A stretch of 50,874 bases of DNA. Source: Phototrophicaceae bacterium. Its GTDB lineage: Bacteria > Chloroflexota > Anaerolineae > Aggregatilineales > Phototrophicaceae. The position numbers were made by a program, and so were the translations under genes. The stretch covers positions 1 to 50,874 of the forward strand of contig JBMOFU010000001.1 of assembly GCA_049318725.1 (NCBI GenBank), given 5' to 3'. Positions 11,452-49,483 of the stretch are shown here, piece by piece. The notes beneath the pieces are model-generated. The model did not search any database and was not told the origin of the DNA. It saw only the letters and a list, made by a program, of their open reading frames with translations. How positions within the stretch are numbered: position 1 is the first letter of the stretch; every line of letters starts with the position of its first letter.

Positions 11452-11464
11452 AGAGGTCATTTAC

Positions 11465-13867
11465 ATGGACGATGTTACCGAACGCGATAGGGCGATTGCC
11501 GAGCGTGCGACACGGCTCACGTCAGAAACCATTCGCCGTCAAATTGAGGCGATGGCCGAAAGCGGCGACCCTAATATCTCGCTCATTTCTGTTGCAGAAC
11601 GTAACCAGATCATCGAAGAAGTTGCTAAGATCATCCCTGCAGGGATGATCTTAGATTTTGTGTTCAGCGGGATCGTGAGCGCAAAAGACCGTACCCTCAT
11701 CGGCGATGAACGAGGGCGTTCTCACCTCAAAGCGCTGTTTAAGGGGGTATCGCTCATGCGCGATAACCTCTTGTATCGCATGGTATTTGCTGGCCCTGCG
11801 ACGGTCTTGGCGGGCTATAACCTTTTGTTGCAATTGGCGGGGGCTAAACCCGATGAATTTTTGCCAGAGGGAACTTGGCAGTTCTATGTAGAATTTGGCC
11901 TGCGGGAAGACCCGGCACGCCACCAAAATGAAACTGTGGGTTTTCAGCGCTATATCAGTCAGCAAAGCGCGACGTTCAATGAGGCGCAACAATTGGCAGC
12001 GTGGCTTTTGGCGTTATCGTGGGTACTGCGCGCCTATGAAGGGTTGATCGGCCAACTGTGGGAAGAAAACACCCGTTTACGCATCTTAGAAGAAACCACT
12101 GGCCTCACAGGGTTGTTACGTCAATGGGAAGTCAAACGCCCCTATAAAGCGGGGCTGTTTCACTTGCTTCAGGTGCGTAAAGCAGAGTTTGATGTCTTTT
12201 GTCGCACCCAACTGGACGCGGTTTCTGAGGCGCAACAGCAACAATTTGAAGCCCAGTGGGACAACCCTACTGCTCAAGAGGAACGCCGTCGTTTGCAGAA
12301 GGCGTATATCAGCCAGATGACGATTCATCGTTGGTTGGAAGCCGGCGATTACAATGACGAACGCAAGCGCATTGAACTCCCCGACCTGCGTTTGGCAGTG
12401 GTCTATCGTAACAACTACTATATCGTGCCGCTCTTGGATGTAGAGGCTGCCAATGTGGGGGAGTCTGCTTTACAGCTTGCCAATAGCCTCTTATTGCGCC
12501 AAGACCCCCCGCTGGCTGATGCAGATATGACCTTAATTGCCATCCCCCGTGCTGCACAGGCTAAGGTGCGGGTATTGCTAGAACCCGCCAGCCGTACTGA
12601 CCTAGATCAGCTGCGCGCTGCGCCCATCATCCTCAATTGGGATGCCGTCAACGCACAACATCCGCTCAGTGACATTCGTGTCACAAGCCGCCGTGGGGTA
12701 GGCGATCATGCGCTTTCGATCTTCCGCAGTGAAAGCAGCATGATTTTTGACTTTTCACACATCTTCTTTGACGGTCCTTGGGCAATGGCAATGGCAGAAA
12801 TCCTCACCAACAGCGCGGTGGTCGCTATTGAAGCTATCGAAGCCGCCCCTGTAACAGTGGCTACCTCCACAATGCCTTTAGCGCCGCTTGCCCTGCAAAC
12901 ATCCCCAGAATTTCTTCGCGCTGCGGCAAAATACCCGCCTGTACTACAATCCGTGAGCGCCGAATATAAGTTCCCCATTGCTCCGCTGCGCTCGGTACGG
13001 CGGGTGATTTCAACCCGTACCCCTCTGAACTTGACGATCAACGACCTATTGGTGTTATACCGTAGTGTGTTTAACCACTACTATGAGCCAAGCGACCGTT
13101 TAATTCGGGCGTTGAACGTCTTTCGTCGTAGCGCACAGGGGGCAGCCCTAGCAAAGCAAGTAGACGCAATGTTGGCTGAACGCAAGCAGATTAACCCCTC
13201 TTTGTTGATCCCTATTGATGCTTCGCGGGTGAACCCCAAAGAACGAATTTTCCCTAGTCCGTTTCGGAACCCTTTGACAAACTTTCATACTGAGCATCAA
13301 AACCTTTGGCAACTGTATGAACAGGCCAAACGCCCGCACCTCTTTGGAAGCAAGAACGACATCGAAACGTTTTATGCCGCCCGTGAACACTATCTTGGGG
13401 CATTGAGCGCCTTTAACAAGATTATCAGCCTGTACCGCTCTATTGCGCTTGAAGGTAAAACGATGAGCGCTACGGCCATCCGCCTGATTGCAGGACTACC
13501 GGGACCGGTTCAACGCCTAGCCGATGGCATCCCCGGTCAGGTTGCCGTTGTCAATGATGTCATCAAGGGGGAGGAAGTCTTTAGCAATGTCGGGCAAGTG
13601 GTGAAGGGGGCGTCAATCACGCGGTTTGCCAGCGCCAAAGATGACAATGATAAAAAGGTGTTGGTGTGGGGGATTATGACCGATGACCGTGATTTAATGG
13701 TTATCACGCTGCGTGACTTCCGCCCAGTGATTTTAGAGCTTTCGAGGCAGGGATACACAGAAATCGCTCAATTGGTGACACAAGATTTTCTACAGGGCTA
13801 TTGCGAAGGGTTGATCCGCTTTGTCAATCAAATGGAGGCGATTTTAACCGCCTCCAAAAGACGCTAA
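11465..13867 (+). CDS. Large (800 aa) hypothetical protein with no recognisable domain
   Basis: A long clean ORF. I chose the ATG at 11465 (MDDVTERD...) because it has an AAAGAGG RBS and starts 13 nt after the upstream stop. The tracked 11393 start overlaps the preceding gene. Confidence 0.8.
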   Translation: MDDVTERDRAIAERATRLTSETIRRQIEAMAESGDPNISLISVAERNQIIEEVAKIIPAGMILDFVFSGIVSAKDRTLIGDERGRSHLKALFKGVSLMRDNLLYRMVFAGPATVLAGYNLLLQLAGAKPDEFLPEGTWQFYVEFGLREDPARHQNETVGFQRYISQQSATFNEAQQLAAWLLALSWVLRAYEGLIGQLWEENTRLRILEETTGLTGLLRQWEVKRPYKAGLFHLLQVRKAEFDVFCRTQLDAVSEAQQQQFEAQWDNPTAQEERRRLQKAYISQMTIHRWLEAGDYNDERKRIELPDLRLAVVYRNNYYIVPLLDVEAANVGESALQLANSLLLRQDPPLADADMTLIAIPRAAQAKVRVLLEPASRTDLDQLRAAPIILNWDAVNAQHPLSDIRVTSRRGVGDHALSIFRSESSMIFDFSHIFFDGPWAMAMAEILTNSAVVAIEAIEAAPVTVATSTMPLAPLALQTSPEFLRAAAKYPPVLQSVSAEYKFPIAPLRSVRRVISTRTPLNLTINDLLVLYRSVFNHYYEPSDRLIRALNVFRRSAQGAALAKQVDAMLAERKQINPSLLIPIDASRVNPKERIFPSPFRNPLTNFHTEHQNLWQLYEQAKRPHLFGSKNDIETFYAAREHYLGALSAFNKIISLYRSIALEGKTMSATAIRLIAGLPGPVQRLADGIPGQVAVVNDVIKGEEVFSNVGQVVKGASITRFASAKDDNDKKVLVWGIMTDDRDLMVITLRDFRPVILELSRQGYTEIAQLVTQDFLQGYCEGLIRFVNQMEAILTASKRR

Positions 13868-13886: not shown

Positions 13887-14807
13887 CTAGACTTCTGCGA
13901 TTTGCACGGTTGCGTAAAAACTACCTGCGCTGGTGGGAACAGCGACAATAGTCAACGTACCATTCCACGAATTGCCTTGATCGTCTGTAAATGACCATGT
14001 GCTGTAGCCGATATTGGTGTCTCCGCCAGCGCTGACCTGTACCCAGCCGGTGACTGCTAATTGTGCATTGTAGAATGCGGTGAGTTCAGCGGCAGAAAGT
14101 GTGGTGCTGACCGTTGCCAATGTGCTGGCAATTTGTTCCCCCGGGAAGCCGCCGCTACCATTCCCAATACTAGAAAGGGTTGCCCCTTCAGGGTTGCTCA
14201 GGCTGGGGAGTAAGCGATAAGGGTCGCTATAGGGTGGGACTTCTTGCGCGTCCCCACACAAATAGGCGTCGCCCGGCTGACGCATAAAGACGATCACTGA
14301 GGTGTTACCCCCCGCAGGATTTGCTGTGCCATTGACGTTTACAAATCCCTCATTGCCGTTATAGCAATAATTGGCATTGAGGATGTCGCTGGCGCCGAAT
14401 CCTGTCGGTTGCCCGGCATCGTCGGTGACATCCCGCCAAACGGCTGCATCTGCAAAGGCGGTTTGATAGAACGCGGTCAACTCTGCGTTGGTAAGCGTGG
14501 TATCAAAGCTTAGGCGGGTGTAGGCTTCGGGTTCATTTTGGCTCACACTGCCGATGATGGTTGCGCCTTCTGGAATTGGTACGTTCATCAACAAGGTTTG
14601 TGGAAGTTCCCCAACCGTGATGGTTTGATTCACAACATACGGCGCGCCCGGCAAGCCGCCGAGTTCACGCTCGATAAAACGGCGCAGGGCTGCATCATCG
14701 CCGCCGATGACCGTAGTGCCGTTACCAGATTCTTGGGCAATGATGCCAAAGGCAGTTGCCATCAACGCCAATACAACAAAAAATAGGGTGTTCTGTTTGC
14801 GGTGCAT
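13887..14807 (-). CDS. Secreted protein with two internally duplicated modules
   Basis: Signal peptide (MHRKQNTLFFVVLALMATAFGIIAQE). An AGGAGAG RBS precedes the ATG at 14807. A repeated PEGAT...TL(T/S)xAELTAFY module is present. Confidence 0.75.
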   Translation of the reverse strand: MHRKQNTLFFVVLALMATAFGIIAQESGNGTTVIGGDDAALRRFIERELGGLPGAPYVVNQTITVGELPQTLLMNVPIPEGATIIGSVSQNEPEAYTRLSFDTTLTNAELTAFYQTAFADAAVWRDVTDDAGQPTGFGASDILNANYCYNGNEGFVNVNGTANPAGGNTSVIVFMRQPGDAYLCGDAQEVPPYSDPYRLLPSLSNPEGATLSSIGNGSGGFPGEQIASTLATVSTTLSAAELTAFYNAQLAVTGWVQVSAGGDTNIGYSTWSFTDDQGNSWNGTLTIVAVPTSAGSFYATVQIAEV

Positions 14808-14981
14808 CTTGATAGCTCTCCTCATTGCGAGAAAGTCATTCTCTTGTGACCTTACTGTAGCATGAAGCCATTTTCGAGGTAAGTGACGGCTACCCTACGC
14901 TTTGCCTGTGGTGCTTCTGGCAGAACACGCTATAATGTGGCGCTGGGTTTTTGTAGTTTTTCTGTGTATGGGAGTAGGGCA

Positions 14982-20221: not shown

Positions 20222-21619
20222 TTGCCTATAGGGGGCGAAGTATTGTCCTTAGCCATTGATCCCCACGAACCCAACGGCGTAAAACAACATCTTAAACCCA
20301 ATATGCACCAGCTGGCATGGCTTGTACTATGGGCGTCCTTTGGTTTGTTCTTCGTTTTCTGTGCTTCCAGCACCTTTTCCATCTATCATTTTGTGTTTCG
20401 GTCAACCGTGCCACTAGGCGGGGTGATTGCGGTTGCAAAAGGCGCCGTCGGGATCGTCCACAATGACCTGTCAGAGAGTTTTGAGCTAGACCAAAGCGTT
20501 ATTGCCCGCGGCGATCAAGTCATCACCGATTCGCAATCACAAGCGGTGCTTAACTTTCGGAATGATGAGACACAAAATCTTGTGGCAGTTGTGACAGTAA
20601 AGGGCAACTCTATACTGGTAGTTCGCGGGGGGTTACAGCCGCGTTTCGGGTGGTCTATACGCCCCTATACCATTACCCTAGAGGCCATTCAAGGCGATTT
20701 CGATATTTTCATCCCAGAGACGCTGAACCGCCCCAATGGGGTGAATGTTCAAATTAAGTTGCCGCAAAATACGCTTGTGGATATTCGCAATGCTGGGCGG
20801 CACCACCTTGTGATTAATGAGCAAACGATTCAACTCAACACGGACAGCGGGCAGGCCGCAATGCTTGATCTTGAAGACGACGTGAGCCAATCTGTGGGGC
20901 GCGGCCAGATGATCGTCTTTGATCGAGAATCGCGGAATTTATTGCAATTGGTTGGGTATGAAAACTTAGTTTCCGAATATGACCTAGCGGCTTTACCGGT
21001 ACAGGGGGATATGCCGACAACCCTGATGAATTCTTGGAATTGCGATGACCGTAGTCCAGAGTCTACCCGCAGCACATTCATCAGCATGATTTTAGACAAC
21101 CGCAATGTCATTGAGTTGTTGCGCGGGGGCAATGCCCGCTCGCACGGAGAAACGCGCTGTGTGCAACCGTTTGGCCCTTCTGCCCAGACGGGATTGCTGC
21201 TAGAAAACTATGACTATTTGGACATTCGCGCTACGTTTTACATTGAAAGCCACTCACTTGATTTGTGTGGCGATAAGGGGAGCGAATGCCCGCTCATGCT
21301 TTTAATGGACTATATTGATACAGAAGGGCGCTCGAATCAGTGGTTTCATGGGTTTTATACCACCTTAGAAGCTCGTCGAGATTACCCCGCCTCATGCGTC
21401 AGTTGCCAAGAACCGCATGAACGGATCAATAATCAAGAATGGTACACTTATGAAAGTGGCAACTTGTTTCGCTTACTCCCAGACCGTACCCCAGCTTCGA
21501 TCTTAAACTTGCGATTTTATGCCTCTGGACATGAGTATCGGTTATTCGTTGATGAGGTGTCTTTGCGGGCGCTAAACCATGAGACGTTTGACCTCATCCA
21601 AACGATTGAGGGGAATTAA
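20222..21619 (+). CDS. Membrane-anchored protein with a FecR-like segment and a Cys-containing C-terminal domain
   Basis: One TM (LAWLVLWASFGLFFVFCASS), then a FecR-like stretch (GAVGIVHND...ARGDQVITDSQSQAVLNF). The start is uncertain: TTG 20222, TTG 20243 or ATG 20303. Confidence 0.6.
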   Translation: MPIGGEVLSLAIDPHEPNGVKQHLKPNMHQLAWLVLWASFGLFFVFCASSTFSIYHFVFRSTVPLGGVIAVAKGAVGIVHNDLSESFELDQSVIARGDQVITDSQSQAVLNFRNDETQNLVAVVTVKGNSILVVRGGLQPRFGWSIRPYTITLEAIQGDFDIFIPETLNRPNGVNVQIKLPQNTLVDIRNAGRHHLVINEQTIQLNTDSGQAAMLDLEDDVSQSVGRGQMIVFDRESRNLLQLVGYENLVSEYDLAALPVQGDMPTTLMNSWNCDDRSPESTRSTFISMILDNRNVIELLRGGNARSHGETRCVQPFGPSAQTGLLLENYDYLDIRATFYIESHSLDLCGDKGSECPLMLLMDYIDTEGRSNQWFHGFYTTLEARRDYPASCVSCQEPHERINNQEWYTYESGNLFRLLPDRTPASILNLRFYASGHEYRLFVDEVSLRALNHETFDLIQTIEGN

Positions 21620-29100: not shown

Positions 29101-29652
29101 TTACGGGATAACAGGCGCAGGCGGTAACAGCGCAATGGAAGCCCCAATCAGGCTCATCACTGCGATGATTGCCGCTAACCAAACGACCAGCGGAACCGTG
29201 CGGCGCGCCGTGCTACGGTTGACCTCTGGCTCTGGCATTGAGTCTTGTAGATACAGTGGAACGGGATTTACCGATAGCCCTTGAATTGCCCATGCTGCAA
29301 AACGGGCTTGGGCGTGCTGTAGGCTAACGATAAGGCACAGCGCATCGGGATAGGCGAACTCGGCAACATCCACCAGCGACGGCAACGGCTCTGTGGTGGG
29401 GTGAGAGTGAAAAATCGCCAGCACTTCTAGCTTTTCTCGTTGAAGCCGCATCAAGGCTTGAATCTGTTGCTGTGGCTCCATGATAAAGCGCTGTTGTGGA
29501 TTTGGCGCGATATTGCCAATGGGGATCACCTCAAGCGCTTGTTGCCCGCGCCCAACGATAAACCCACACACTTCTTGGTCTGGCATTTGGCGGGCTAACG
29601 CGACGATGGAGTGTGCTTGGGCGCGGGTGAGCCAAAGGTAGGGCGGTTTCAT
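29101..29652 (-). CDS. JAMM/MPN+ metalloprotease with a C-terminal TM anchor
   Basis: E (QEVCGF), HSHP, and S..D (PSLVDV) make up the JAMM motif. The C-terminal hydrophobic helix is PLVVWLAAIIAVMSLIGASIALL. Its start shares an ATGA overlap with the upstream gene. Confidence 0.85.
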   Translation of the reverse strand: MKPPYLWLTRAQAHSIVALARQMPDQEVCGFIVGRGQQALEVIPIGNIAPNPQQRFIMEPQQQIQALMRLQREKLEVLAIFHSHPTTEPLPSLVDVAEFAYPDALCLIVSLQHAQARFAAWAIQGLSVNPVPLYLQDSMPEPEVNRSTARRTVPLVVWLAAIIAVMSLIGASIALLPPAPVIP

Positions 29653-30026
29653 GGGGTGTCGGGCGTTTCATCTGGCGCGGCAACTACAAAGCCTTCGACA
29701 AATTCGTCTTGCGGTGGATTGCGTGTCTCATAAAACAACTCTGCTGTGAGCGTATAGACCCCATACGGCGATTCTACGCCCCGTAGGTGCATCGTAAATT
29801 CCATGTGGGTGTGCATGGTTTCGATAATGCTCAATTCGCTCACTACACGGTCTTGCTCGTCGTGAATCGCCAAGAGCAGGTTGGGGCGTTGCAAGAAGGG
29901 GGTCACATCCAATTCAACTTTTACACGAAAGCCATCTTGTAACGGAACAATGCTCACCGATTCGATGCGAATTTCTTCTGCGGGCTTTGGAATTTGCTCA
30001 GGGTCGTTGAAAAAGGTAATGTCCAT
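29649..30026 (-). CDS. Hypothetical 125-aa protein
   Basis: Clean ORF translationally coupled (ATGA) to the JAMM gene. No recognisable family. The beta-rich composition suggests a small sandwich domain. Confidence 0.55.
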   Translation of the reverse strand: MDITFFNDPEQIPKPAEEIRIESVSIVPLQDGFRVKVELDVTPFLQRPNLLLAIHDEQDRVVSELSIIETMHTHMEFTMHLRGVESPYGVYTLTAELFYETRNPPQDEFVEGFVVAAPDETPDTP

Positions 30027-30038
30027 AGTAGGTTAGGT

Positions 30039-30863
30039 TCACTCGTTAAACTGATAGGTGGATTCGGCGTAGTAACGCACTTGCCGATTCAGGAATTTTT
30101 CTTGTAACCACGCTTGTAGATGGTCATTTTTGGCCGTGAGGCTCATCGTTGTATCTTTCAATACTGCCATAGGATAGTTTAACTGCAAAGCGCGGCCATG
30201 TACAATATGGCGGCTGATCCCCGGCGGTAAAAAGGCCTGTTGGCGTGCCGCTTCGACAATATCCTGTGGGTGATAGCCGGGAAAAATCACCAACGCATTG
30301 GCTGTGGGGTAGGAATCCCAAACTTCAACCGGGTCACTGAACGGGGTTCGGTTCAGCCGTGCTTGCCGCTGATAGACTTGTACCACTGCACGTAAGACCG
30401 CATTTTGCGCTTGTATCGTTGGGGCAGGAGCATAAATTGCATATCGCTGTTGATCGGCGGTAATGATGTGTGCAAGCGCGGGTTGATCGTGTTTAGCTTC
30501 CCCCTGATGGATTTCAAGCATTGCCAATTGCCGAAGTTGACGAATGAAAGCGTCGCTGCTCCAGCCGCTGATAACATGGTTCCATGTGGCAAGTTCAACC
30601 TGCCCGTTGATATACGAGGCCACTTGAACCAGAAGGTGCGGAATACCCAATTGGGTGATGGAATAACAACGGTTTGCGCCGTCTAGGATGATGTAGAGGT
30701 CGTCTTCTGTGTGGGCAACAATCGGCGGGTTCGTGATATACTCAGCACGCTGGAGCGTTTCGATCAGCGGCTCGGCGCGTTGGCTGTCGTGTTCCTCATG
30801 GGGCAAGGGGGCAGTTGCGGCGATGATTCGCAAATCTGGAACTGGGATAGGAACATGCTGCAT
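30039..30863 (-). CDS. ParB/Sulfiredoxin-fold (ParB N-terminal-like) protein
   Basis: LPHEEHD...R...L...NPPIV...YIILDGANRCYSITQLGIPHLLVQV resembles the ParB N-terminal/Srx core, with DGANR in place of DGHHR. The ATG at 30863 has a GGAG RBS. Confidence 0.6.
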   Translation of the reverse strand: MQHVPIPVPDLRIIAATAPLPHEEHDSQRAEPLIETLQRAEYITNPPIVAHTEDDLYIILDGANRCYSITQLGIPHLLVQVASYINGQVELATWNHVISGWSSDAFIRQLRQLAMLEIHQGEAKHDQPALAHIITADQQRYAIYAPAPTIQAQNAVLRAVVQVYQRQARLNRTPFSDPVEVWDSYPTANALVIFPGYHPQDIVEAARQQAFLPPGISRHIVHGRALQLNYPMAVLKDTTMSLTAKNDHLQAWLQEKFLNRQVRYYAESTYQFNE

Positions 30864-30916
30864 GGGGCGTCTCCGCTGATGTAAGCGATAGCCAAGTAGG
30901 GTAGCAGTGGGATAGG

Positions 30917-31438
30917 ATGCTGACAATGGGCGCAAAAGAACAAGGGGCAAATGCAACAGAAGGGCGGTGGCTGGTCATCCCCAGAACGCTTTGCTTTGTT
31001 TTTCACGGGGATGAGGTTTTGATGCTCAAACGCGCCCCTCACCGCCGCATTTTTCCCAACCGCTATAATGGGGTGGGCGGGCATTTAGAACGCTTTGAAG
31101 ACCCCAGTGCAGGCGCAATCCGAGAGGTTCTTGAAGAAACTGGCTTAACGGTCTATGGCCTACGCTTGCGAGGCGTCAGCCACATTGACGCTGGCGAATC
31201 TACAGGCATTGTGTTGTACATCTATACGGCCTACAGCCACAGCCGTGAATTCACCGACGATGAACATGAGGGGACGCTACACTGGGTTGCCCGCGATCAG
31301 CTATTGTCATTAGACCTTGTTGAGGATTTGCCCCACATTTTGCCGCGTATCTTGGCCGCGCAAGAAGATACCCCGCCGTTTTCATTTCACCTGAGCTATG
31401 ATGCTCAAGACCAGTTAGCCATTCATTTTACGGAGTGA
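30917..31438 (+). CDS. NUDIX hydrolase
   Basis: Complete Nudix box: GGHLERFEDPSAGAIREVLEETGL. Confidence 0.88.
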   Translation: MLTMGAKEQGANATEGRWLVIPRTLCFVFHGDEVLMLKRAPHRRIFPNRYNGVGGHLERFEDPSAGAIREVLEETGLTVYGLRLRGVSHIDAGESTGIVLYIYTAYSHSREFTDDEHEGTLHWVARDQLLSLDLVEDLPHILPRILAAQEDTPPFSFHLSYDAQDQLAIHFTE

Positions 31439-33247: not shown

Positions 33248-33550
33248 TTAGTGAATCGGCATGACTTTACGGAACTTGTACCCGTAAATAATCATGCCCG
33301 TGTCGCCTTCAGTGGTCAGTTTGCGGGTAACCATTTCTACTGCATCGCCAATTTGTGGCGGTTCATCTAAATCAGTAAGCTGCGCGGTGATGATTGGGCC
33401 TTCATCCAGCTTAATCAGCGCCAATACATAAGGCGCTTGCCATTCGTAGCCAGCAGGGGGTTCTTGCAAGATCGTGAAACTGTAGATTTCTCCCTTGCCC
33501 GAAAACTGGACAACTTCACGATCTTGGGAGGTTTCTGTTTTGTAGGTCAT
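33248..33550 (-). CDS. DUF35 OB-fold protein, C-terminal (OB) part only
   Basis: From ATG 33550: MTYKTETSQDREVVQFSGKGEIYSFTIL...APYVLALIKLDEGPIITAQL...IGDAVEMV, a typical DUF35 OB fold. Located next to thiolase-like and HMGCS genes. Confidence 0.75.
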   Translation of the reverse strand: MTYKTETSQDREVVQFSGKGEIYSFTILQEPPAGYEWQAPYVLALIKLDEGPIITAQLTDLDEPPQIGDAVEMVTRKLTTEGDTGMIIYGYKFRKVMPIH

Positions 33551-33569
33551 AGTTGCTTTTGCGGGTGCT

Positions 33570-33752
33570 TTACGATTGACGAACGGCAGTGACCGCCGCT
33601 GCTTGTTCAACAGAGGTGGTGACCTCATTGTCTAGCGTAATTTGGTTCACGCTTGTGGGGCGGGTTTGTAGGCTCACGGAGCCATCTTCCAAGCGCACAC
33701 CTTGCAGACGATACCGTTGTGGGTTTAGGCGCCAGTGACGAGAAATCTGCAT
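33570..33752 (-). CDS. DUF35 N-terminal segment as a separate 60-aa ORF (zinc-ribbon cysteines absent)
   Basis: MQISRHWRLNPQRYRLQGVR... matches the DUF35 N-terminal W-R...P.RY.L.G motif. An AGGAG RBS lies 9 nt upstream. It is in a different frame from the OB-fold ORF and stops 19 nt before that ORF's ATG. Confidence 0.55.
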   Translation of the reverse strand: MQISRHWRLNPQRYRLQGVRLEDGSVSLQTRPTSVNQITLDNEVTTSVEQAAAVTAVRQS

Positions 33753-33858
33753 GTTGGTACACTCCTATGTGTATTTGTTTGCGTCATCTGAAGAAAACTA
33801 TACGCCCCATTAGCTCTCAAAACCTCTCATGGCAGGTGTTGAGAGCTTTCAAAGCCTA

Positions 33859-35019
33859 TCAGATCACCTGTAGTAGGTGGGTGATTGCCGTTGATGCTAA
33901 CCCGCCTAAGTTTTGGATGAGAGCAACTTGAGCGTTTGCTACCTGATTGGCGCCTGCTTCACCGCGCAGTTGCAATGTGGCCTCAACCGCCTGATAAACC
34001 CCAGTAGCTCCAGCGGGGTTGCCCCGACTTTTAAGCCCGCCCCATGTACTCAAGGGAAGCTTACCCGTTAAAGCAATTGCTTCACCCCCGTTTGTAGCCA
34101 ATTGCCAGCCAGTGCCGCGTTCAGCATATCCGGCGGCTTCTAAGCTGAGGGCAGCAAGGATGGTATAGGCGTCGTGCAACTCGAAAAGGTCTACCGCATC
34201 TGGCGTTAGGTCGGCTTGTTGAAATGCCTTTTGCGTAGAAAGCGCAACTGCCGCTAAAAATAACGGGTCTTTACGGTCGTGTAGGGCAAAGATGTCTGTG
34301 GCAGCTGCACTGCCTACAATTTGGATGGGTTTCGCAACCCGATCTAGTGCGCGTTCCGTTGAGGTTAAAATCACAGCAGCAGCGCCATCCGCATCTGGGG
34401 CGCTATCAAATAGGCTCACTGGATCAGAGATCATTGGGGCTTTAGCAAAGGCGCCAGCCTTTAAGCGATTCCGATACATTGCATTGGGGTTGAGGCTCCC
34501 GTTATGATGGGCGTTCAGGCTAAAGCCTTCAAACGCACTAAGGTCTAGGCCATATTCGTGCATATAGCGGCGCATGAGCATGGCCGCAAGTGCCGTGATA
34601 GATGCGCCGTGTATCGTTTCATAGTCAGCGTCAATACTCACGTTGCGTGCGCGTACTCGTTCAGCGGCAACTGTATCCGTGAGTTTTTCAACCCCTAGCA
34701 CCAATACACTGTCTACAAGGCCAGAGGCAACGGCCAAATAACCGCTTCGTAGCGCTGCCGCGCCAGAGGCGTCGCCTGCCTCAAAACTAAAAGCCTCTAT
34801 GCCAGCAAGCCCGGCAAAGTCTGCGATCAGCGCGCCAATATGCGCTTGACTGCTGACACTTGCACCATAGCCGTTGCCCACATAAAGTGCATCCACGCTT
34901 TCCATGTTGGCATCGGCCATTGCCAAGCCAATAGCCTCCCCAGAAAGGCTACGCAGACCCCGATCCCAATATTCATTAACGGGGGTTTGTCCAACCCCCA
35001 CGATAGCTACATCTCGCAT
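33859..35019 (-). CDS. Thiolase-fold protein (archaeal/SCP2-type) with substituted catalytic positions
   Basis: Full-length similarity to archaeal-type acetoacetyl-CoA thiolases (MRDVAIVGVGQT..., YLAVASG, GVEKLTD, GGLKSRG.PAGATG, QLRGEAG). However it reads GDASG for ACASG, HDAY for HDCF and GNP for GHP. Confidence 0.85.
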   Translation of the reverse strand: MRDVAIVGVGQTPVNEYWDRGLRSLSGEAIGLAMADANMESVDALYVGNGYGASVSSQAHIGALIADFAGLAGIEAFSFEAGDASGAAALRSGYLAVASGLVDSVLVLGVEKLTDTVAAERVRARNVSIDADYETIHGASITALAAMLMRRYMHEYGLDLSAFEGFSLNAHHNGSLNPNAMYRNRLKAGAFAKAPMISDPVSLFDSAPDADGAAAVILTSTERALDRVAKPIQIVGSAAATDIFALHDRKDPLFLAAVALSTQKAFQQADLTPDAVDLFELHDAYTILAALSLEAAGYAERGTGWQLATNGGEAIALTGKLPLSTWGGLKSRGNPAGATGVYQAVEATLQLRGEAGANQVANAQVALIQNLGGLASTAITHLLQVI

Positions 35020-35030
35020 AGTATTTGCGT

Positions 35031-36113
35031 TTAGTCCTTGAGTTTGCCCCGATAACGGGTATACGTTGCATAGTCAATTTCGGTACGGCGGCTGATATAG
35101 TCACGAGTGGTAGGCGCAAGCCCGCGCGTCTGCAAAATACGGTCTGTCACCACAAGGTCAAAACTATCAGAACCGGCACCGCTCCCGTAGCTTACCATAA
35201 GGATGCGATCCCCCGGTTTAGCAATGTCCAGAATTGCAGTTAAGCCAAGCATACACGAGCCAGAATAGACATTGCCGATTTCACCCACCAGCAAGCCGGT
35301 TTGATATTGCTCTGGTTTGAAGCCTAAACTTTCCATTGCGCGGGTCGGGAACTTGAGGTTTGGCTGATGGAAGACAACATAGGTGTAATCTGAAGCCTGC
35401 GTCCCCATCATTGCCAACATGCGCGAAGCAGAGTTTAGCGTGTGGTTAAAGTAGGCAGGTTCCCCCGTGAAGCGGTCACCGTGGCTCGGATAGGGGACAT
35501 CGGCGCGTCGCCAAAAGTCTGGCGTATCGGTCACGTAACTGTAGCTCCCCTGATACACGGCAATGGATTCTTCGGCACGCCCAATGAGGAAGGCCGCGCC
35601 ACCCGACGCCGCTGTATATTCGAGCGCATCGCCCGGTCGCCCCTGTGCGGTATCCATGCCGATGCTAAGGGTATAAGCCCCCATGCCACTACCGACCATC
35701 CCAATAGAGGCTTGTACGGCTTCCGTCCCGGCTTTACAGGCAAATTCCCAGTCGGCAGCCTGAATGCTAGGGGAAGTTCCAATGCTTTCAGCGACAATCG
35801 TGCTAGAAGGCTTTACGGCGTAGGGATGGCTTTCGCTACCTACCCATACAGCACGAATCTTGAGGGGGTCAATTTGGCCGCGTGCTAAGGCATTACGTGC
35901 TGCTTCAACAGACATCGTAATCACGTCTTCGTCAAGGCCAGCGACGGCCTTCTCTTTAATCGGGCTTCCCCCAAGGCCATTTGTCCAAACGCGGGCAACT
36001 TCTTTGCCCGGCAAGCGATAACGGGGGATGTATGCGCCATAGCCGACGATCCCGACGGCGCGGTCTGGGCGTAACAAATCACTGCTGACGTGTCCGTTTG
36101 TATTTTGCATCAT
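35031..36113 (-). CDS. Hydroxymethylglutaryl-CoA synthase, archaeal type
   Basis: [22 protein letters not shown] (Glu), EFACKAGT (Cys), FHQPN (His), GNVYSGS and SYGSGAGSD. The catalytic triad is intact. Confidence 0.9.
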
Positions 36114-36120
36114 AATGGTG

Positions 36121-37419
36121 TTATGTCCCTGTTGTGAACTGTTGAACCAACTGTTTCGCCCGTTCTAGGCGGATGTTCCCTTCACTGACCATGTGTTGCA
36201 CAACCTTATCAATCATGGCGCCATTTGCACCGGCGGCAACGGCCAACTGCTTGGCATGAAGGCGCATGTGGCCGTGTTGAATCCCTGTTGTAGCAAGCGC
36301 ACGGATGGCCGCCAAATTTTGCGCCAGCCCCACCGATACGACCACTTCGGCCAACTCGCGGGCAGAGGCGACATTGAGAATCTTGAGCGCTAACGGGGCC
36401 ACTGGATGAACCCGCGTCGTACCGCCCACGATCCCCAACGCCATCGGCAATTCAATGGAGCCGTGTAAATTCCCATCGTCATCTTGCCACCAGCGGGTCA
36501 AACTGGTGTAACGCCCGTTGCGTGCGGCATAGGCGTGCGCGCCAGATTCCACCGCCCGCCAGTCATTGCCAGTCGCAATCACCACCGGATCAATCCCGTT
36601 CATGATACCCTTGTTGTGCGTCGTGGCACGGTAAGGGTCAACTTCAGCAAAGACGCCCGCCTCAACAATCAGTCGGCCAACCGTCACGCCATCAAGCGTT
36701 TCTGTGGCAAGTTGCTCGGCGGGGATCATCCCCTCTGCGCGGGCTTTGCGCTGGTCGGTGAGGTTGCTCAAAATACGCAGGTTGACCCGCCCCCCAATGA
36801 TTTCTTCAATGCGTGGGGTCAGTTGCTCTACAACGGTATTGATGGCGTTTGCGCCCATCGCATCACGGGTATCGTACAGAATGTGAATCACCAGCATGGG
36901 GCCGATGGCAGTATCAGGGAAGGGGCGTACTTGCAAGTCACGCGCACCGCCGCCATACTTGACAATGCTCCCGCCAAGCGTATTGGCCTGTTGCAAAAGT
37001 TCTTGCTTCTGAGCATTGATTGCCCCAGCAGCAGCGTATAAATCTGGCAGGTCTAGCACTTGAATCTGACCAATCATGATCGGCTCATCACTACTGCTGA
37101 CGAACCCGCCACCATCACGGAATAATTTTGCTGCACTGCTCACAGCAGCGACAACGGAGGGTTCCTCAATGACCATTGGGATTAGATAATCTTTTTGGTT
37201 GATGAGAAAGTTGGTTGCCACCGCCAACGGAAGCCCATAAACGCCAATGGCATTTTCAACCATATGATCGGCTTGTTGGGCATTTAACCCAGTGATCCCA
37301 ACGAGGTTCGTCTGCTCAGTGACGCTGAGGTTTGCCCATTGGGCGACAATGGCAGCTCGTTCGGCCAACGACCGCTTATAAAAGCCAGTGATTCGAGAGG
37401 TGTGTTTATTGGTGTCCAT
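36121..37419 (-). CDS. mvaA: HMG-CoA reductase, class II
   Basis: [19 protein letters not shown]-terminus, [30 protein letters not shown] and [11 protein letters not shown]. Confidence 0.92.
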
Positions 37420-44406: not shown

Positions 44407-44913
44407 TCACGCACCGAAGTAAATGTGTGTGACTAACTTGCCGAATTTAATCTCGTCACCGTCCCTTAACACGCGCGGTTGATTGGCGATCAAGCGTTGC
44501 CCATTGAGGTAGGTTCCGTTACTACTGCCTAAATCGGTAATTGTAAGGGTATCCTCGCTCCGCTCAATGGTGGCGTGAATGCGAGAAACCCCCTTCTCAA
44601 TCGCCCCAAACGGCATTAAGTCTATAGTGGGAGGGGAAGTGTTAGAACTATCATCCCTCCCCACTAAACACATGGCGTCAAAGTTTAGGCGCAATGGGGC
44701 GTGGCCGTCAACGACATGGAGTAAGATTTCTACACCCGGGATAAGCCGCGCCGTTCCCCACCTTTGCTTTGTGGTCACAAGGTTGCTAGTGTTTTTCTCT
44801 AACATGCGTGTATATGCGTGGTTGCGGGCGCCAATCTCTAGCGGAAAACCACAATCTTCGCAAAAGAAATACCCCTCACGATTAGAGTATTTACAATTTT
44901 TACACGCTATCAT
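44407..44913 (-). CDS. Zinc-ribbon + FHA domain protein
   Basis: N-terminal CKNC...CEDC ribbon and a C-terminal FHA domain (GRDD...SRIHATI...D.GSSNGTYLNG). Confidence 0.9.
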   Translation of the reverse strand: MIACKNCKYSNREGYFFCEDCGFPLEIGARNHAYTRMLEKNTSNLVTTKQRWGTARLIPGVEILLHVVDGHAPLRLNFDAMCLVGRDDSSNTSPPTIDLMPFGAIEKGVSRIHATIERSEDTLTITDLGSSNGTYLNGQRLIANQPRVLRDGDEIKFGKLVTHIYFGA

Positions 44914-46400
44914 TACAAGAGACCCTCCGCCTCAGAACTTAAAAGGTGACGGGTACTGTATTTAATATTTTTTCGACTTTCTTCAGAGAGCATTTTCGTT
45001 TGTGAAAGCCGTACAGCCTCTTGCTGCGCTTCTTGGGCGAGTTCAGGTTCACCCATATCAATCAGGCGGGTGGCAAGGTTTTCTAATTGGCGGGTTGCCT
45101 TTTTAATGTCGCCTGCTTTGACAGACTCGCTTGCCCGTTCTTGCAGGCGATAAAGTGCCAACTTACCCAGCGCATCAATGATAATCGTCGGTGGCGCTTC
45201 GGTACTGGCTTGTTTTACCACTTCAATGCTAAATTCGCTCACAGTAGCATGTTTGCGGTTGGTGGCAAGTACATCCCCCGTGATCACTGAGCGCACAAGG
45301 GGGTAAAAGCCAGGTTGCAAATTCGCGGGCAACAGAAATTGTGCCAATACGCTGATGGGGCGTTCTGCCTGCATTCCCCCTAGTGCAATCACGGGTTCAT
45401 CTTCTGGGAGTGATTGGGGGCTTGGGGTTAACTTAAAGACCATCTCTAGGGCGACATGTTCCGCGCTGGCGAGTGAGAGTTGGATGCGCTCTGCAAAAAG
45501 GTTGGATAGATGCTTGACCTGATTGTTCATGAAGCCCCCTACATCACGGGCAGACTTGATAAACATTGAGGTGCCACCAGTCATTGCAGCGATTTCATCT
45601 AAGAAATCGTCGTTCCACTCACTGCCTAGCCCAAGTACACTAATGCCAACCCCGCGCTCGGCGGCTTCTTTTGCCAACTTGTGGCACTCTTCTTGGTCAC
45701 CATATGTATTGCCGTCGGTCAATAAGATCAGATGATTCACATGGTTATCATCGAGATTCTTCAAAACCTCGTCGTAGCCGGCCTGCAAGCCTTTGTAGAT
45801 TTCGGTACCCCCAGAGGCACGCATCATGCGTGCGCGCGAAATCAATTGGCGTTTGTTACGAACTGTAGTGGCGGGAATAATAATCTCTGGGCGGTCATTA
45901 AAACCAACTACCGAAAGAAAATCGTTTTCGCCCAATTGCTCGATGATTTCAGTGGCCGCCAGCTTCACACGGTCAAGGCGTGCGCCCTGCATGGAATTGC
46001 TGTGATCTAGCACCAGCGCAACGTTTAGGGTGGCGGGTTGAGGTTCAGGAAAATGTGAAGCTATTACGTCTGGTTCGATCTGCAATAACAGATAGACCAC
46101 TTGCGGTTCATCAAGAATTTCAATGGTTCGGCGGCTGGCCGTGACCCTTAGGCCAAGCGCGGTGGGGGGGCCACCCTGCTCTTTAAGGGTCAGGTCAAAA
46201 GCATGACGCCGCTTGCGGTCTGTCAATAACTGGTAGGCGTCACGCGCCTGCTCAATTTGACGCAATGCCGCCAAGTTACCCGACTGATGCGCGGGGGTAA
46301 GCCGATCTATCAGGCCTTGATAAGTCACCTGAATATCACTTGGCGGAGCGTTTCTGGGAACCCCTAAGATTCCATATGGGTCAGGCACATGTAACATCAT
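44913..46400 (-). CDS. J-like domain (no HPD) fused to a vWA domain protein
   Basis: DPYGILGVPRNAPPSDIQVTYQGLIDRL-TPA in place of HPD. vWA MIDAS motif LVLDHSNSM. Start at ATG 46400. Its TAA stop overlaps the FHA gene ATG (TAATG). Confidence 0.85.
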   Translation of the reverse strand: MMLHVPDPYGILGVPRNAPPSDIQVTYQGLIDRLTPAHQSGNLAALRQIEQARDAYQLLTDRKRRHAFDLTLKEQGGPPTALGLRVTASRRTIEILDEPQVVYLLLQIEPDVIASHFPEPQPATLNVALVLDHSNSMQGARLDRVKLAATEIIEQLGENDFLSVVGFNDRPEIIIPATTVRNKRQLISRARMMRASGGTEIYKGLQAGYDEVLKNLDDNHVNHLILLTDGNTYGDQEECHKLAKEAAERGVGISVLGLGSEWNDDFLDEIAAMTGGTSMFIKSARDVGGFMNNQVKHLSNLFAERIQLSLASAEHVALEMVFKLTPSPQSLPEDEPVIALGGMQAERPISVLAQFLLPANLQPGFYPLVRSVITGDVLATNRKHATVSEFSIEVVKQASTEAPPTIIIDALGKLALYRLQERASESVKAGDIKKATRQLENLATRLIDMGEPELAQEAQQEAVRLSQTKMLSEESRKNIKYSTRHLLSSEAEGLL

Positions 46401-46428
46401 GAAATAGCCTCGATGCTGCTTGACGCAT

Positions 46429-47448
46429 TTAACTGGGCATATACAGCAATACCGCTGTGATGTTGTCTTTGCCGCCAAGCATATTGGCTTTGGCAACGAG
46501 TTTATCACAGGCATCTTGCGGGTTTGCACTTTCTCGGACGATTTGTGCCATTGTTTTATTATCTACTAGCCCCCAAAGCCCGTCGCTACATAGCAACAGG
46601 TAAGAGTTGTTGGGCATCCTGCGGGTAACGGCGTCTACCTCTAGGTTTTCACTTTGACCAATGGCACGGTATAGCACATTATGTTGTGGGTGTTCTGCGG
46701 CTTCTTCTGGCGTGATTTGGTCAAGTTCAATCAGCCGTTGCACAAGTGAGTGGTCGCGAGTAATTTGCTCAATGCCATCGCGGGTGATTAGATAGGCACG
46801 GCTGTCACCGACATGGGCAAAATAGGCCAGATCACCGACTAACGCCACCGCTGTGATGGTTGTTCCTGCATCGGGAATGTCTTTTAACACAGATCCGTTG
46901 GCATCTTGAATCGCCTCAATTAGCGATTCTGCCAACGGCGGATGTTGGTTAATCTCATCGAGAGAGTTGCCAATCATCGGCAAAAAGATGCGATTCATCA
47001 CTTGTTCAGACACTTTTCGGGTGACCATCGCAGAGGCTTTTTCGCCGTCATGATGGCCGCCCATACCGTCGGCCACAATGAACAACCCCAAGTCTGGGCG
47101 GTTTTCTACGCTGCGATTAGAAAAGTAAAAGGTCATGAGTGAATCTTGGTTGTTGGCGCGCACCATCCCGACATCGGTAGACTGCCCGAAAATCAGATGG
47201 GCATTGCGTGAGGCGATGACCGTTTCTAGCGGGAGCCGTTGTGTTGCGCCATCTATAACCGCTGTCGTAGAAGGGTCAGCTACGGGTATCGTATCTGACC
47301 CAGCACTGGCTCCTGACGGGTTGGGCGGCACATTCGCTGGCGGTGATGCAGGTATTGAAGTGACCCCAGTCGTACTCTTGGGGCGTTCGGTGTTATCTCC
47401 AGATTGTCCGAGTAGTCGGCGGAACATATCCATAGTGTTTGGCTCCAT
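46429..47448 (-). CDS. PP2C-family Ser/Thr phosphatase
   Basis: GMVRANNQDS, FIVADGMGGH, and a C-terminal DNITAVLL motif. It has a low-complexity N-terminal region of about 80 aa. The start may instead be the ATG at 47433. Confidence 0.9.
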   Translation of the reverse strand: MEPNTMDMFRRLLGQSGDNTERPKSTTGVTSIPASPPANVPPNPSGASAGSDTIPVADPSTTAVIDGATQRLPLETVIASRNAHLIFGQSTDVGMVRANNQDSLMTFYFSNRSVENRPDLGLFIVADGMGGHHDGEKASAMVTRKVSEQVMNRIFLPMIGNSLDEINQHPPLAESLIEAIQDANGSVLKDIPDAGTTITAVALVGDLAYFAHVGDSRAYLITRDGIEQITRDHSLVQRLIELDQITPEEAAEHPQHNVLYRAIGQSENLEVDAVTRRMPNNSYLLLCSDGLWGLVDNKTMAQIVRESANPQDACDKLVAKANMLGGKDNITAVLLYMPS

Positions 47449-47472
47449 CCCTCGTTCATTGGGCGGCGAAAA

Positions 47473-49401
47473 TTATTCCAAAATGGGTACAGCATAAATG
47501 TGATAGTCTAACGAACCAAAAATCACTAACGGGGTATTCCCCACGCTTGCAATAGTTGGGGTAGAAAGAATCTCGCCATGTGCTTTGAACTTCCACTTTT
47601 CTTTGCCCGTTTTGGCATCTAGGCAATAAAGATAATGGTCAGTCCCGCCAATGTACACGTTATTCTCGTAAATGATCGGTGAACTCAGTACCGGCTTTCC
47701 CATCGGGAAGCGCCACTTTTCCTTTTGGCCGTAAGTATCTACCGAGTAAACATTACCGTCCACCGAGCCAAAAATGATGAAGTCGTTCCATATCACTGGG
47801 CTGGAGATAATTGGGCCATTGGTTCTAAAGCGCCAAGAATTATAGCCGCTGGTGATGTCTATCGCATACAGAAAACCGTCATCACTACCAATGTAGCAAA
47901 TCCCTTCGCGCTCGTCAAAGCAGGCAGAAGATTTGATGTCGCGCTTGGTGCGGTATACCCATTTGCGCTCCCCTGCAAGTGTCACCCCCAAGATTTCGCC
48001 TTGACCATTGCCAAAGATTAGTATCTCATCGGTGACTAACACCCGATTACGAACTGGGCTGCCCGCGTCAAAATCCCACAGTTTACGACCGTTGCTAGCA
48101 CTCAATGTATAGAGGCGGCCATCATCACTGCCAAAAAATATGTAATTATTGGCAACAACCGGCGAACTGCGGATTTTGTCCTTTGTGGCAAACGACCATA
48201 TAACTCGTCCAGTGAGTGGATTAACAGCATTGAAAGTGCTATCTTCAGAGCCAAACAAGATTAACTTTGAAGTGGTATCCACCACTGGGGATGAGGCAAT
48301 CCCGGCCAACGTAGAAAACTTCCAGACTTGTTGCCCATTTTCTAGGTTAAGACACCACATATTGGTATCATAAGAGCCGATATACACCTTGCCCTCGTAC
48401 ACAAGCGGGCTACTCCGGATTTCATCCTCAGTTTTGAACACCCATTTCGGTTCGATTTCACCGCCGGCCTCAATGAACGATGTTCCAGTGGCGGCAGCTG
48501 GGGCGATTTCTGGCGCAGCAACAGCGGCATATTGGCGGCGTTGCCGTTGACGAATGGCTTCGGCCATTGCCTCACAGCTTTCAAAGCGGTCTTCTGCATT
48601 GAAGGCTAAGGCTTTATCCACCACTTCGACAAACCAAGCAGGGACATCCGCATTGAAGTTGCGAATAGGGCGCTCTGGAAAGCTAAACGGTGGCTCTAGG
48701 CGTGGGTCTTTGCGCGTAAGGATGTGATGGAGCGTTGCCCCAAGGCTATACTGGTCACTTCTGGGGGAAGCATTCCCTTTATACTGTTCTGGCCCAGAAT
48801 AGCCTTCAGTGCCGATGATCGTTTGCTTATTGGCACCCACAAAGGTTTTTGCAATGCCAAAGTCAATCAAGCGGACTTTACCCAAATTATCAATCATGAT
48901 ATTGGAGGGCTTCATGTCACGGAAAATGATCGAGTCTGGTTGGTGATTGTGCAGGTAGCTTAACACCTCACACAGGTCAATAGACCACTCAATGACCTTT
49001 TCAATCGGCAAGGTCTTGGTTTGTGAAAGTAGCGCTTCTAGGTCACGCCCGTTGATGTGTTCCATAACCAAATACACACGGTCATTTTGGTCGAAGAAGT
49101 CGTAAATCTTCGGGATTGCTGGATGATTCAATGTGGCAAGGATGTTAGCTTCACGACGAAACGTGGCAAGCATTTGGTCACGCAATGCACGGTCACCAGA
49201 AGGGGTGTGCATTTCTTTAACGGCGGCAAGCCGCCGAACATCTGGGAAGTTAAGGTCACGGGCTTGATAGACGGTTCCCATACCGCCACCGCCGAGGACG
49301 CCCATCACTTTGTAACGGCGTAACAGAACCGTGTTGGCACTTAGAACACCGCTAGGTTGCTGGTCGCCTGGATTTCCGTGGAGTTGCATTGTCTCTGGCA
49401 T
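47473..49401 (-). CDS. Ser/Thr protein kinase with a C-terminal 8-bladed PQQ-like beta-propeller
   Basis: GGGGMGTVYQA, AVKEM, FRDMKPSNIMI, DFGIAK, then eight repeats of the pattern ..SSP.V.....I.FGS.D. The start is uncertain (ATG 49401 or 49389; the tracked 49479 would abut hemW). Confidence 0.9.
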   Translation of the reverse strand: MPETMQLHGNPGDQQPSGVLSANTVLLRRYKVMGVLGGGGMGTVYQARDLNFPDVRRLAAVKEMHTPSGDRALRDQMLATFRREANILATLNHPAIPKIYDFFDQNDRVYLVMEHINGRDLEALLSQTKTLPIEKVIEWSIDLCEVLSYLHNHQPDSIIFRDMKPSNIMIDNLGKVRLIDFGIAKTFVGANKQTIIGTEGYSGPEQYKGNASPRSDQYSLGATLHHILTRKDPRLEPPFSFPERPIRNFNADVPAWFVEVVDKALAFNAEDRFESCEAMAEAIRQRQRRQYAAVAAPEIAPAAATGTSFIEAGGEIEPKWVFKTEDEIRSSPLVYEGKVYIGSYDTNMWCLNLENGQQVWKFSTLAGIASSPVVDTTSKLILFGSEDSTFNAVNPLTGRVIWSFATKDKIRSSPVVANNYIFFGSDDGRLYTLSASNGRKLWDFDAGSPVRNRVLVTDEILIFGNGQGEILGVTLAGERKWVYRTKRDIKSSACFDEREGICYIGSDDGFLYAIDITSGYNSWRFRTNGPIISSPVIWNDFIIFGSVDGNVYSVDTYGQKEKWRFPMGKPVLSSPIIYENNVYIGGTDHYLYCLDAKTGKEKWKFKAHGEILSTPTIASVGNTPLVIFGSLDYHIYAVPILE

Positions 49402-49483
49402 ATAAGGGTTGCTCTTGAGGCTCTCATGAATGATGACTACCATAATGGCTATTATATTGAATACGAACGGATACTGCAATTTT

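Follow-up and report, generated by a model that had tools for sequence, protein, structure and literature searches.

The complex of thiolase, 3-hydroxy-3-methylglutaryl-CoA (HMG-CoA) synthase (HMGCS) and DUF35 protein is the textbook case of an endergonic Claisen condensation that is pulled by channelling through a fused coenzyme A (CoA) site. The stretch of DNA analysed here (the window, 50,874 nt of a contig from a Phototrophicaceae bacterium, Chloroflexota) carries on its minus strand an operon of this kind, in which the genes for HMG-CoA reductase (HMGR) and HMGCS are followed by that of a thiolase-fold protein of 386 amino acids and by those of two DUF35-derived proteins, N60 and OB. The thiolase-fold protein possesses no cysteine at all. 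We consider it fairly probable, from sequence comparison, that this cysteine-free protein has no catalytic role and is kept, as a pseudoenzyme with a thiolase fold, for its structural part in an archaeal-type HMGCS complex.

Archaeal acetoacetyl-CoA thiolases (ACAT) are defined by the motifs CxS, HDxF and GHx, and the His of HDxF is essential, the H284A substitution abolishing the formation of HMG-CoA (PMC12960953, of 2026). In the same paper, which cites Voegeli 2018, archaeal ACAT is described as insoluble when expressed alone and archaeal HMGS as inactive alone; in the complex, the active-site clefts of ACAT and HMGS form a fused CoA site. For these three reasons an archaeal-type HMGCS cannot simply drop its partner. 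Complexes of the same architecture with one dead subunit are already known, and a dead HMGS beside a live ACAT has been established by experiment in PfACAT/HMGS-DUF35 of Pseudomonas fluorescens, PhlABC (5M3K) and MucABC (9VBO) (PMC12960953). The present locus resembles these systems in being tripartite and in retaining one subunit that would be dead, but the roles are reversed: there, the Cys is retained by the ACAT-like subunit and catalysis has been lost from the HMGS-like one, whereas here the HMGS appears intact and the ACAT-like subunit dead. The locus operon also differs in looking like primary mevalonate metabolism, with HMGR adjacent.

The cysteine-free protein belongs to the thiolase superfamily, with scores of 36.6 bits for Thiolase_N (PF00108, cut-off 26.4) and 135 bits for Thiolase_C_1 (PF22691, cut-off 28). 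It aligns over its full length and without ambiguity with the Pyrococcus furiosus thiolase PFC_04095 (7YVY; E 2e-102, about 49% identity), which is its closest solved relative, and over its full length also with the thiolase subunit of the M. thermolithotrophicus thiolase/HMGCS/DUF35 complex (6ESQ; E 3e-65). Its NCBIfam scores are all below cut-off (NF004720, 388 against 420; the acetyl-CoA acetyltransferase (AcCoTHIOL) equivalog NF053570, 324 against 600). An AlphaFold (AF2) monomer with a predicted local distance difference test score (pLDDT) of 71 and a predicted template-modelling score (pTM) of 0.75 has 7YVY and 6ESQ as its top two Foldseek matches, at template-modelling (TM) scores of 0.72-0.76; the model, in which the active-site loops have pLDDT below 50, served for confirmation of the fold only and not for geometry.

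Of the three motifs that define ACAT, this protein keeps one and has two broken. The nucleophilic Cys of CxS is replaced by Asp83 and the His of GHx by Asn334, and the His-Asp of HDxF is kept as residues 282 and 283 (Table 1). HDA(F/Y) and QN.GG are common to the protein and 7YVY, but 7YVY keeps the ACASG Cys and the GHP His. The original prediction, made from this sequence alone, had every alignable catalytic position substituted. Asp83 and Asn334 are real substitutions, and the other two positions turn out to be ordinary for the family. Ala284, taken as a lost Cys of HDCF, stands at a position that is free in archaeal HDxF, and HDAF is found in 7YVY as well as in all 120 canonical paralogues described below; Gln369, taken as a lost His of HN.GG, corresponds to QNIGG in 7YVY, ANVGG in 6ESQ and QN in the same 120 paralogues. 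Because the protein has no Cys, no re-alignment can restore a catalytic one, and for the same reason the acetyl-S-enzyme intermediate of all characterised thiolases should be impossible to form, as had been predicted. The same protein, 100% identical, is encoded in three independent assemblies, and a base-calling error at codon 83, which had been thought improbable, is therefore ruled out. Ala207 is invariant where active relatives have Ser before the Pro of the pantetheine-binding S-P-x-x-DGA stretch. Genes of this kind are named 'thiolase domain-containing protein' by NCBI and 'acetyl-CoA C-acetyltransferase' by JGI; the latter label is probably wrong.

The five genes are tightly packed between 33248 and 37419, with gaps of 7 nt between HMGR and HMGCS and of 11 nt between HMGCS and the thiolase-like gene. 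Those for HMGCS, the thiolase fold and DUF35 lie together within 33248-36113, just as the three components of the 6ESQ complex are encoded side by side. The likeness to 6ESQ extends to the thiolase-fold subunit, which aligns over its whole length (TM 0.75), to the DUF35 OB domain, which aligns as well, and to the HMGCS. The latter matches 6ESQ chain I with E 7e-128, contains the motifs SESHPY, FACKAGT, FHQPN and GNxYSG, and has the full E-C-H-N catalytic tetrad (residue identities after PMC12960953), so that the statement of the original prediction that HMGCS keeps its catalytic residues holds. Unlike 6ESQ, the locus has a Cys-free thiolase subunit in which Asp stands in for the Cys of CxS and Asn for the His of GHx, a DUF35 encoded by two genes (a zinc-ligand-free 60-aa module and an OB-only protein), an HMGR inside the operon and, elsewhere in the genome, presumably a separate canonical thiolase paralogue. 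The HMGCS also has an N-terminal extension of some 18 residues (about 36060-36113) that is absent in the 6ESQ HMGCS; extended N-termini are found in related loci too. Genes of the lower mevalonate pathway were not found in the window by Pfam scans of 34 window open reading frames (ORFs).

Table 1. Coordinates of the operon genes and active-site codons in the window, and of the operons in related loci to which the text refers (locus name before the colon)
Feature	Position	Strand	Evidence or comparison
Class II HMG-CoA reductase (HMGR), operon gene 1	36121-37419	-	Pfam HMG-CoA_red E 1e-109; TIGR00532 397 bits, above cut-off
Archaeal-type HMG-CoA synthase (HMGCS)	35031-36113	-	NF003274 529 bits and TIGR00748 521 bits, both above cut-off
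Cysteine-free thiolase-fold protein, 386 aa	33859-35019	-	Pfam Thiolase_N and Thiolase_C_1
N60, 60 aa: DUF35 N-terminal helix and degenerate Cys-free zinc ribbon	33570-33752	-	
OB-fold half of DUF35, 100 aa, without helix or zinc ribbon	33248-33550	-	Pfam OB_ChsH2_C E 2e-18
Codon 83	34771-34773	-	GAC = Asp; nucleophilic Cys of ACASG (CxS) in 7YVY and 6ESQ
Codons 282-285	34165-34176	-	His-Asp-Ala-Tyr; HDAF in 7YVY, HDCF in 6ESQ
Codons 282-283	34171-34176	-	CAC GAC = His-Asp of HDxF, kept
Codon 334 (Gly333-Asn334-Pro335)	34018-34020	-	AAC = Asn; GHx His in G-H-P of 7YVY and G-H-A of 6ESQ
Codons 369-370	33910-33915	-	Gln-Asn; QNIGG in 7YVY, ANVGG in 6ESQ
Thiolase-like gene, then 66-83-aa mini-protein, then complete DUF35 (early-branching loci)	L062:11243-11919; L066:11272-11912; L078:11325-11933		
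HMGCS-thiolase-like-DUF35 operon with P0144	L095:781-7540		P0144 = D|HDSS|GHP, Asp at the Cys position

Conservation was surveyed with one genome per GTDB species. Orthologues of the cysteine-free protein were matched in at least 589 species, where they are intact and 59-70% identical, and 80 listed loci were examined, all from Chloroflexota (Anaerolineae, Aggregatilineales, Phototrophicaceae, Thermoflexus and Ardenticatenia). The 120 best database homologues, 65-70% identical, come from metagenome-assembled genomes of Anaerolineae or Chloroflexi. Position 83 is Asp in 101 and Glu in 19 of these 120, position 334 is Asn in every one, and the His and Asp of HDxF are present in 119 and 120, respectively. 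Across the 80 species loci, position 83 is acidic in 77 and Gly in three, position 334 is Asn in 77 and His in three, and the HDxF His is kept in 78, the other two having Ser or Gln and none having Tyr. The operons of the three Gly83 species are otherwise intact, and the order HMGR-HMGCS-thiolase-like-N60-OB is found in about 75 of the 80 loci.

Mean pairwise identity is 0.71 in the cysteine-free clade against 0.74 in the clade of canonical paralogues. Both clades have in common ASG, GVEK, MRRYM, NAH, DGAAA, LEAAGFAE and GGLK.RG.P.GATG, and the number of Cys per protein is 0-1 in the former against 4-6 in the latter. The substitutions first seen in a single protein are thus conserved among orthologues, and the cysteine-free gene is under purifying selection and not decaying. 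A decaying gene or a sequencing artefact would explain the loss of catalytic residues and nothing further; with a constraint comparable to that on the catalytic paralogue, this explanation has a negligible probability. Pseudogene and sequencing error were both rejected on the identical protein of the three assemblies and the intact orthologues in at least 589 species.

A second thiolase gene, whose product is about 52% identical to the cysteine-free protein and carries C / HDAF / GHP, is present in two loci. In L064 it follows the Cys-less gene after 50 nt, and in L050 it immediately precedes HMGR with the same orientation; no DUF35 genes are found nearby in either locus, and none within 10 kb in L064. 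An alpha/beta-hydrolase-like ORF of 270 aa (L064:9069-9881) is located between HMGCS and the Cys-less thiolase gene in L064. All 120 matches of a search with this canonical paralogue have C / HDAF / GHP / QN and are named Anaerolineae or Chloroflexi, and in L087, L088, L096 and L098 the gene stands alone, with no adjacent HMGCS or DUF35. One paralogue is found at 875-892 kb of a 6,247,952-bp contig, and a Phototrophicaceae contig of identical length has the Cys-less operon at 1.495-1.516 Mb, so one genome would hold both genes, about 600 kb apart. The canonical archaeal-type paralogue is widespread in Anaerolineae and usually stand-alone. The original prediction expected a change in how acetoacetyl-CoA is supplied and looked to a second, canonical thiolase elsewhere in the genome; such a gene exists in Anaerolineae, and at least three genomes have it together with the Cys-less one, which largely answers the question of supply.

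In the ketosynthase-chain length factor (KS-CLF) pairs and KS-Q subunits of polyketide synthases, a Cys-less subunit of the thiolase superfamily is kept beside a catalytic partner. Gln and decarboxylase chemistry are found there, in contrast to the Asp/Glu/Gly and the lost His of the present locus. By analogy with KS-CLF of type II polyketide synthases, the cysteine-free subunit might form an obligate heteromer with the canonical paralogue, one dead and one live thiolase-fold subunit each being served by one DUF35-derived module (N60; OB or full DUF35). Such an arrangement would preserve the channelling of acetoacetyl-CoA to HMGCS and would refine the pseudoenzyme reading without contradicting it. 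The positions of the canonical gene in L064 and L050 are in favour of it, as are the two modules of N-terminal helix and zinc ribbon (mini-protein and full DUF35) in L062, L066 and L078; the canonical paralogue is, moreover, never found with a DUF35 neighbour of its own, though archaeal ACAT is insoluble alone according to PMC12960953. The two genes are, however, unlinked in most genomes, as in the one where about 600 kb separate them, and the two loci where they are neighbours, L050 and L064, have no DUF35 genes nearby, so that we regard the heteromer as rather unlikely.

The wider family was examined with 119 informative representatives of 50%-identity clusters, those nearest to the cysteine-free protein. 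The nucleophile position is Cys in 57 of them and another residue in 62 (19 Gly, 11 Ser, 9 Asp, 8 Glu; the rest Ala, Pro, Asn, Thr and Gln). Cys-less archaeal-type thiolase-like proteins thus seem to form a large and poorly characterised group. In a neighbour-joining tree with bootstrap, the Anaerolineae D/E-N clade has 97% support, and the wider Cys-less clade, with 62%, is sister to the canonical clade at a weak 39%. The nearest distant Cys-less representatives read G|SDAY|GNP, Q|HDAY|GNP, G|HDRY|GEV, G|FDAY|GDV, G|WDAF|GNP and E|CDTY|GNV at the three motifs; all three catalytic positions drift in these distant members, which is the pattern expected after catalysis has been lost. Two distant representatives were inspected for their context, and the names attached to these contexts are Anaerolineales and Chloroflexota: P0125 lies in the order HMGR-HMGCS-thiolase-like-full DUF35, and P0130 in the order HMGCS-thiolase-like-full DUF35, where HMGR was not called. 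The operon-encoded partner of HMGCS is accordingly Cys-less across a broad part of the phylum. Since Gly predominates in the outgroups, Cys was probably lost before Asp/Glu arose in the Anaerolineae clade, with the tree weakly resolved at this point.

Another HMGCS-linked thiolase-like protein, P0144, has Asp at the Cys position and keeps GHP. Its operon in L095 is embedded among genes for geranylgeranyl reductase (GGR), PcrB (geranylgeranylglyceryl phosphate (GGGP) synthase-like), an iron-containing alcohol dehydrogenase (Fe-ADH; glycerol-1-phosphate (G1P) dehydrogenase-like) and a polyprenyl synthase, a cluster that has the composition of an archaeal-lipid-type gene set. The Cys to Asp change of P0144 is independent of that in Anaerolineae, which suggests that a carboxylate at this position may be useful.

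A carboxylate might in fact serve a repurposed active site. Asp/Glu83 would then act as nucleophile, through an acetyl-aspartyl mixed anhydride comparable to that of class I CoA-transferases, or as general base, with Asn334 as oxyanion-hole donor and His282 as base, and the subunit would make acetoacetyl-CoA or another acyl-CoA product for HMGCS, which would be a mechanism without precedent in the thiolase superfamily. Its chemistry is established in other enzymes, with an oxyanion-hole Asn in FabH and Glu-acyl anhydrides in CoA-transferases, and these examples count in its favour. So do the interchange of Asp and Glu in 77 of the 80 species, the Asn334 of all 120 homologues, the conserved His-Asp, the invariant charged residues R91, R125 and D209 specific to the clade, the Asp or Glu of 17 of the 62 non-Cys representatives (ten of which keep both His residues) and the independent change in L095. 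Against this, three species have Gly instead of the acid in otherwise intact operons, related Cys-less operonic proteins mostly have Gly and have lost the His residues too, and the Ser of the pantetheine stretch is replaced by invariant Ala207; with a canonical paralogue in the same genomes, new chemistry would be unneeded. We also know of no enzyme of the thiolase superfamily with a carboxylate nucleophile, and we judge a catalytic carboxylate to be unlikely. That at least one of two things holds, either catalysis by Asp/Glu83-Asn334-His282 through the carboxylate or a CLF-like role in a five-protein metabolon of HMGCS, dead and live thiolase, N60 and OB, is an unlikely outcome too.

Cys-less thiolase-like proteins are themselves known. 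ST0096 of S. tokodaii (4YZO), the SCP2-thiolase-like protein of T. brucei (TbSLP, 5AB4-7), Ltp2 (6OK1) and Sal (9MYR) all have a thiolase fold in which the nucleophilic Cys is replaced, and Ltp2 and Sal work with DUF35, but none of the four is encoded with HMGCS and HMGR. ST0096 differs further in having Ser at the Cys position; we know of no reported function for it. TbSLP, Ltp2 and Sal have the motif Y-D-x-(F/Y) with a catalytic Tyr, where the locus protein has His.

The original prediction had offered an aldolase of the Ltp2 type as one of three readings, and a retro-aldolase of the Ltp2/Sal type with a DUF35 partner would agree with the fold, the missing nucleophile, the DUF35 neighbour and the presence of both proteins among the Foldseek results (TM about 0.67-0.71). 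Catalysis by Ltp2 and Sal depends on the Tyr of a YD(H/C)(F/Y) motif (PMC12329534). His stands at this position in the HDAY of the locus protein, Tyr344 of Ltp2 has no equivalent, and in sequence Ltp2 is much more remote (E 1e-22) than the true thiolase (E 2e-102). The operon is moreover HMGR-HMGCS and not one of steroid catabolism, and Pfam scans identified no MaoC-type hydratase in the operon or the window, either fused or adjacent to the DUF35 parts, which are free-standing. The Tyr motif and the genomic context together led us to reject an Ltp2/Sal aldolase, whose probability is minimal.

Decarboxylation had been proposed as well, by analogy with KS-Q. The cysteine-free protein might be a malonyl-CoA decarboxylase or a decarboxylative condensing enzyme comparable to KS-Q or TbSLP, the structures of the latter being among its Foldseek neighbours. 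TbSLP, itself Cys-less, has weak malonyl-CoA decarboxylase activity (kcat 0.005 s-1; PMC12329534), and this activity is marginal. In the clade, Gln is never found at position 83 (Asp or Glu in the 120 homologues; Asp, Glu or Gly in the 80 loci), the KS-Q analogy finds no positive support, and the thioester-polarising His of GHx is gone as well. Replacement of the KS Cys by Asp or Glu reportedly did not raise decarboxylase activity (Witkowski 1999), which also counts against this reading, and we hold it to be very unlikely.

The DUF35 component of the locus is likewise altered. No single DUF35 protein with a Cys4 zinc ribbon and an OB fold is encoded here; the two parts are split between N60 and the OB-only protein, and an intact DUF35 is found in just three of the 80 related loci. 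N60 is preceded by an AGGAG Shine-Dalgarno sequence 9 nt upstream and is called as a gene in independent assemblies also. It reads MQISRHWRLNPQRYRLQGVRLEDG where 6ESQ_E has VVRSWRHMKERYNLIGTRCKT, matching the N-terminal helix and first hairpin of DUF35, and it has none of the four zinc-binding Cys. Its N-terminus aligns weakly to residues 2-22 and 17-38 of 6ESQ_E and PhlB, in stretches that are individually not significant. About 70 species share the conserved core MQISRHWR.N.QRYRL.G.R...G...LQ.RP. The OB protein starts at Met27 of a 126-aa ORF, and other assemblies have the gene called at a length of 100 aa; its alignment to residues 42-127 of 6ESQ_E has an E of 2e-16 over that part, and about 75 of the 80 species loci encode it.

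In L062, L066 and L078, which branch early, the mini-protein that follows the thiolase-like gene consists of the helix and a Cys4 zinc ribbon with two CxxC pairs, and the next gene encodes a DUF35 with helix, zinc ribbon and OB domain. In L070, a zinc-ribbon mini-protein with two CxxC pairs is accompanied by an OB-only gene. The N60 and OB pair of the window appears to derive from the arrangement found in the three early-branching loci. As a zinc-ribbon mini-protein there precedes the full DUF35, we infer that N60 began as a duplicated N-terminal module of DUF35, after which the module would have lost its zinc site and the full DUF35 its N-terminus.

Among the readings of the original prediction, the scaffold pseudoenzyme is best supported. 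An archaeal-type thiolase would have been duplicated in a chloroflexotal ancestor. One copy would have stayed an acetoacetyl-CoA thiolase with C / HDAF / GHP and left the operon, while the copy beside HMGCS would have lost its nucleophilic Cys and later the GHx His, its fold and interfaces being kept. Purifying selection would maintain the dead copy if archaeal-type HMGCS is functional only within the thiolase/DUF35 assembly, which would provide the fused CoA-binding cleft and a scaffold. HMGCS, the cysteine-free subunit, N60 and the OB module are proposed to assemble; the stand-alone canonical paralogue, perhaps docking on the same complex, would make acetoacetyl-CoA, and the complex would turn this into HMG-CoA, on which the adjacent reductase would act. 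What was once the active-site (oxyanion) pocket is most likely filled and stabilised by the Asp/Glu83-Asn334 pair, which would be no more than a structural plug. In agreement with this, the catalytic positions look relaxed rather than re-specified, with D/E/G at position 83, N/H at GHx and Ser or Gln for the HDxF His in two species.

Several observations weigh against the pseudoenzyme reading. The acid at position 83, with its interchange of Asp and Glu, and the near-invariant Asn334 show more order than relaxation predicts. The catalytic base motif His282-Asp283 is still conserved, and the clade has invariant polar residues of its own (R91, R125, D209, Q343 and E346). The bootstrap value of the wider Cys-less clade is modest, and P0144 acquired its Asp independently with GHP kept. 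Co-occurrence of the Cys-less gene and the canonical paralogue is limited to three genomes; for the source organism, neither tblastn with the canonical paralogue nor Pfam scans of the 34 ORFs identified a second thiolase within the 50-kb window, the only sequence covered.

Elsewhere in the window, a Prok-JAB (MPN) domain protein (29101-29652) overlaps a 125-aa ORF (29649-30026) and is followed by a 305-aa ORF (30039-30956) with no Pfam match; the three (29101-30956) may form a small conserved module of unassigned role. A run of signalling genes on the minus strand (44407-49479) encodes an FHA-domain protein, a DnaJ-VWA protein, a PP2C phosphatase and a fusion of a Ser/Thr kinase with a PQQ-like beta-propeller. 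The long ORFs at 11393-13867 (824 aa), 13887-14825 (312 aa) and 20222-21619 (465 aa) match no Pfam family at E <= 1e-5.

In the literature searched, we found no description of a Cys-less ACAT partner of an intact HMGCS or of a split, zinc-free DUF35, no report of the Cys-less state as a class-wide feature of Anaerolineae, nothing linking Anaerolineae, the mevalonate pathway and thiolase, and no mention of 7YVY. In a bacterial class represented by at least 589 species-level genomes, the architecture of the complex appears to have been kept while the thiolase chemistry of the operon subunit was removed and the zinc ribbon of DUF35 dismantled. If the cysteine-free protein is a pure scaffold, it would reveal which part of the complex HMGCS truly depends on and would be the natural mirror image of PhlABC and MucABC. 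When the metabolism of Anaerolineae is reconstructed, the stand-alone paralogue should be given the thiolase step. If instead the carboxylate takes part in catalysis, or dead and live subunits do pair in a heteromer, this would be new enzymology in a well-studied superfamily and a new mode for the thiolase/HMGCS complex, and the independent Cys to Asp change in L095 would suggest that it has recurred.

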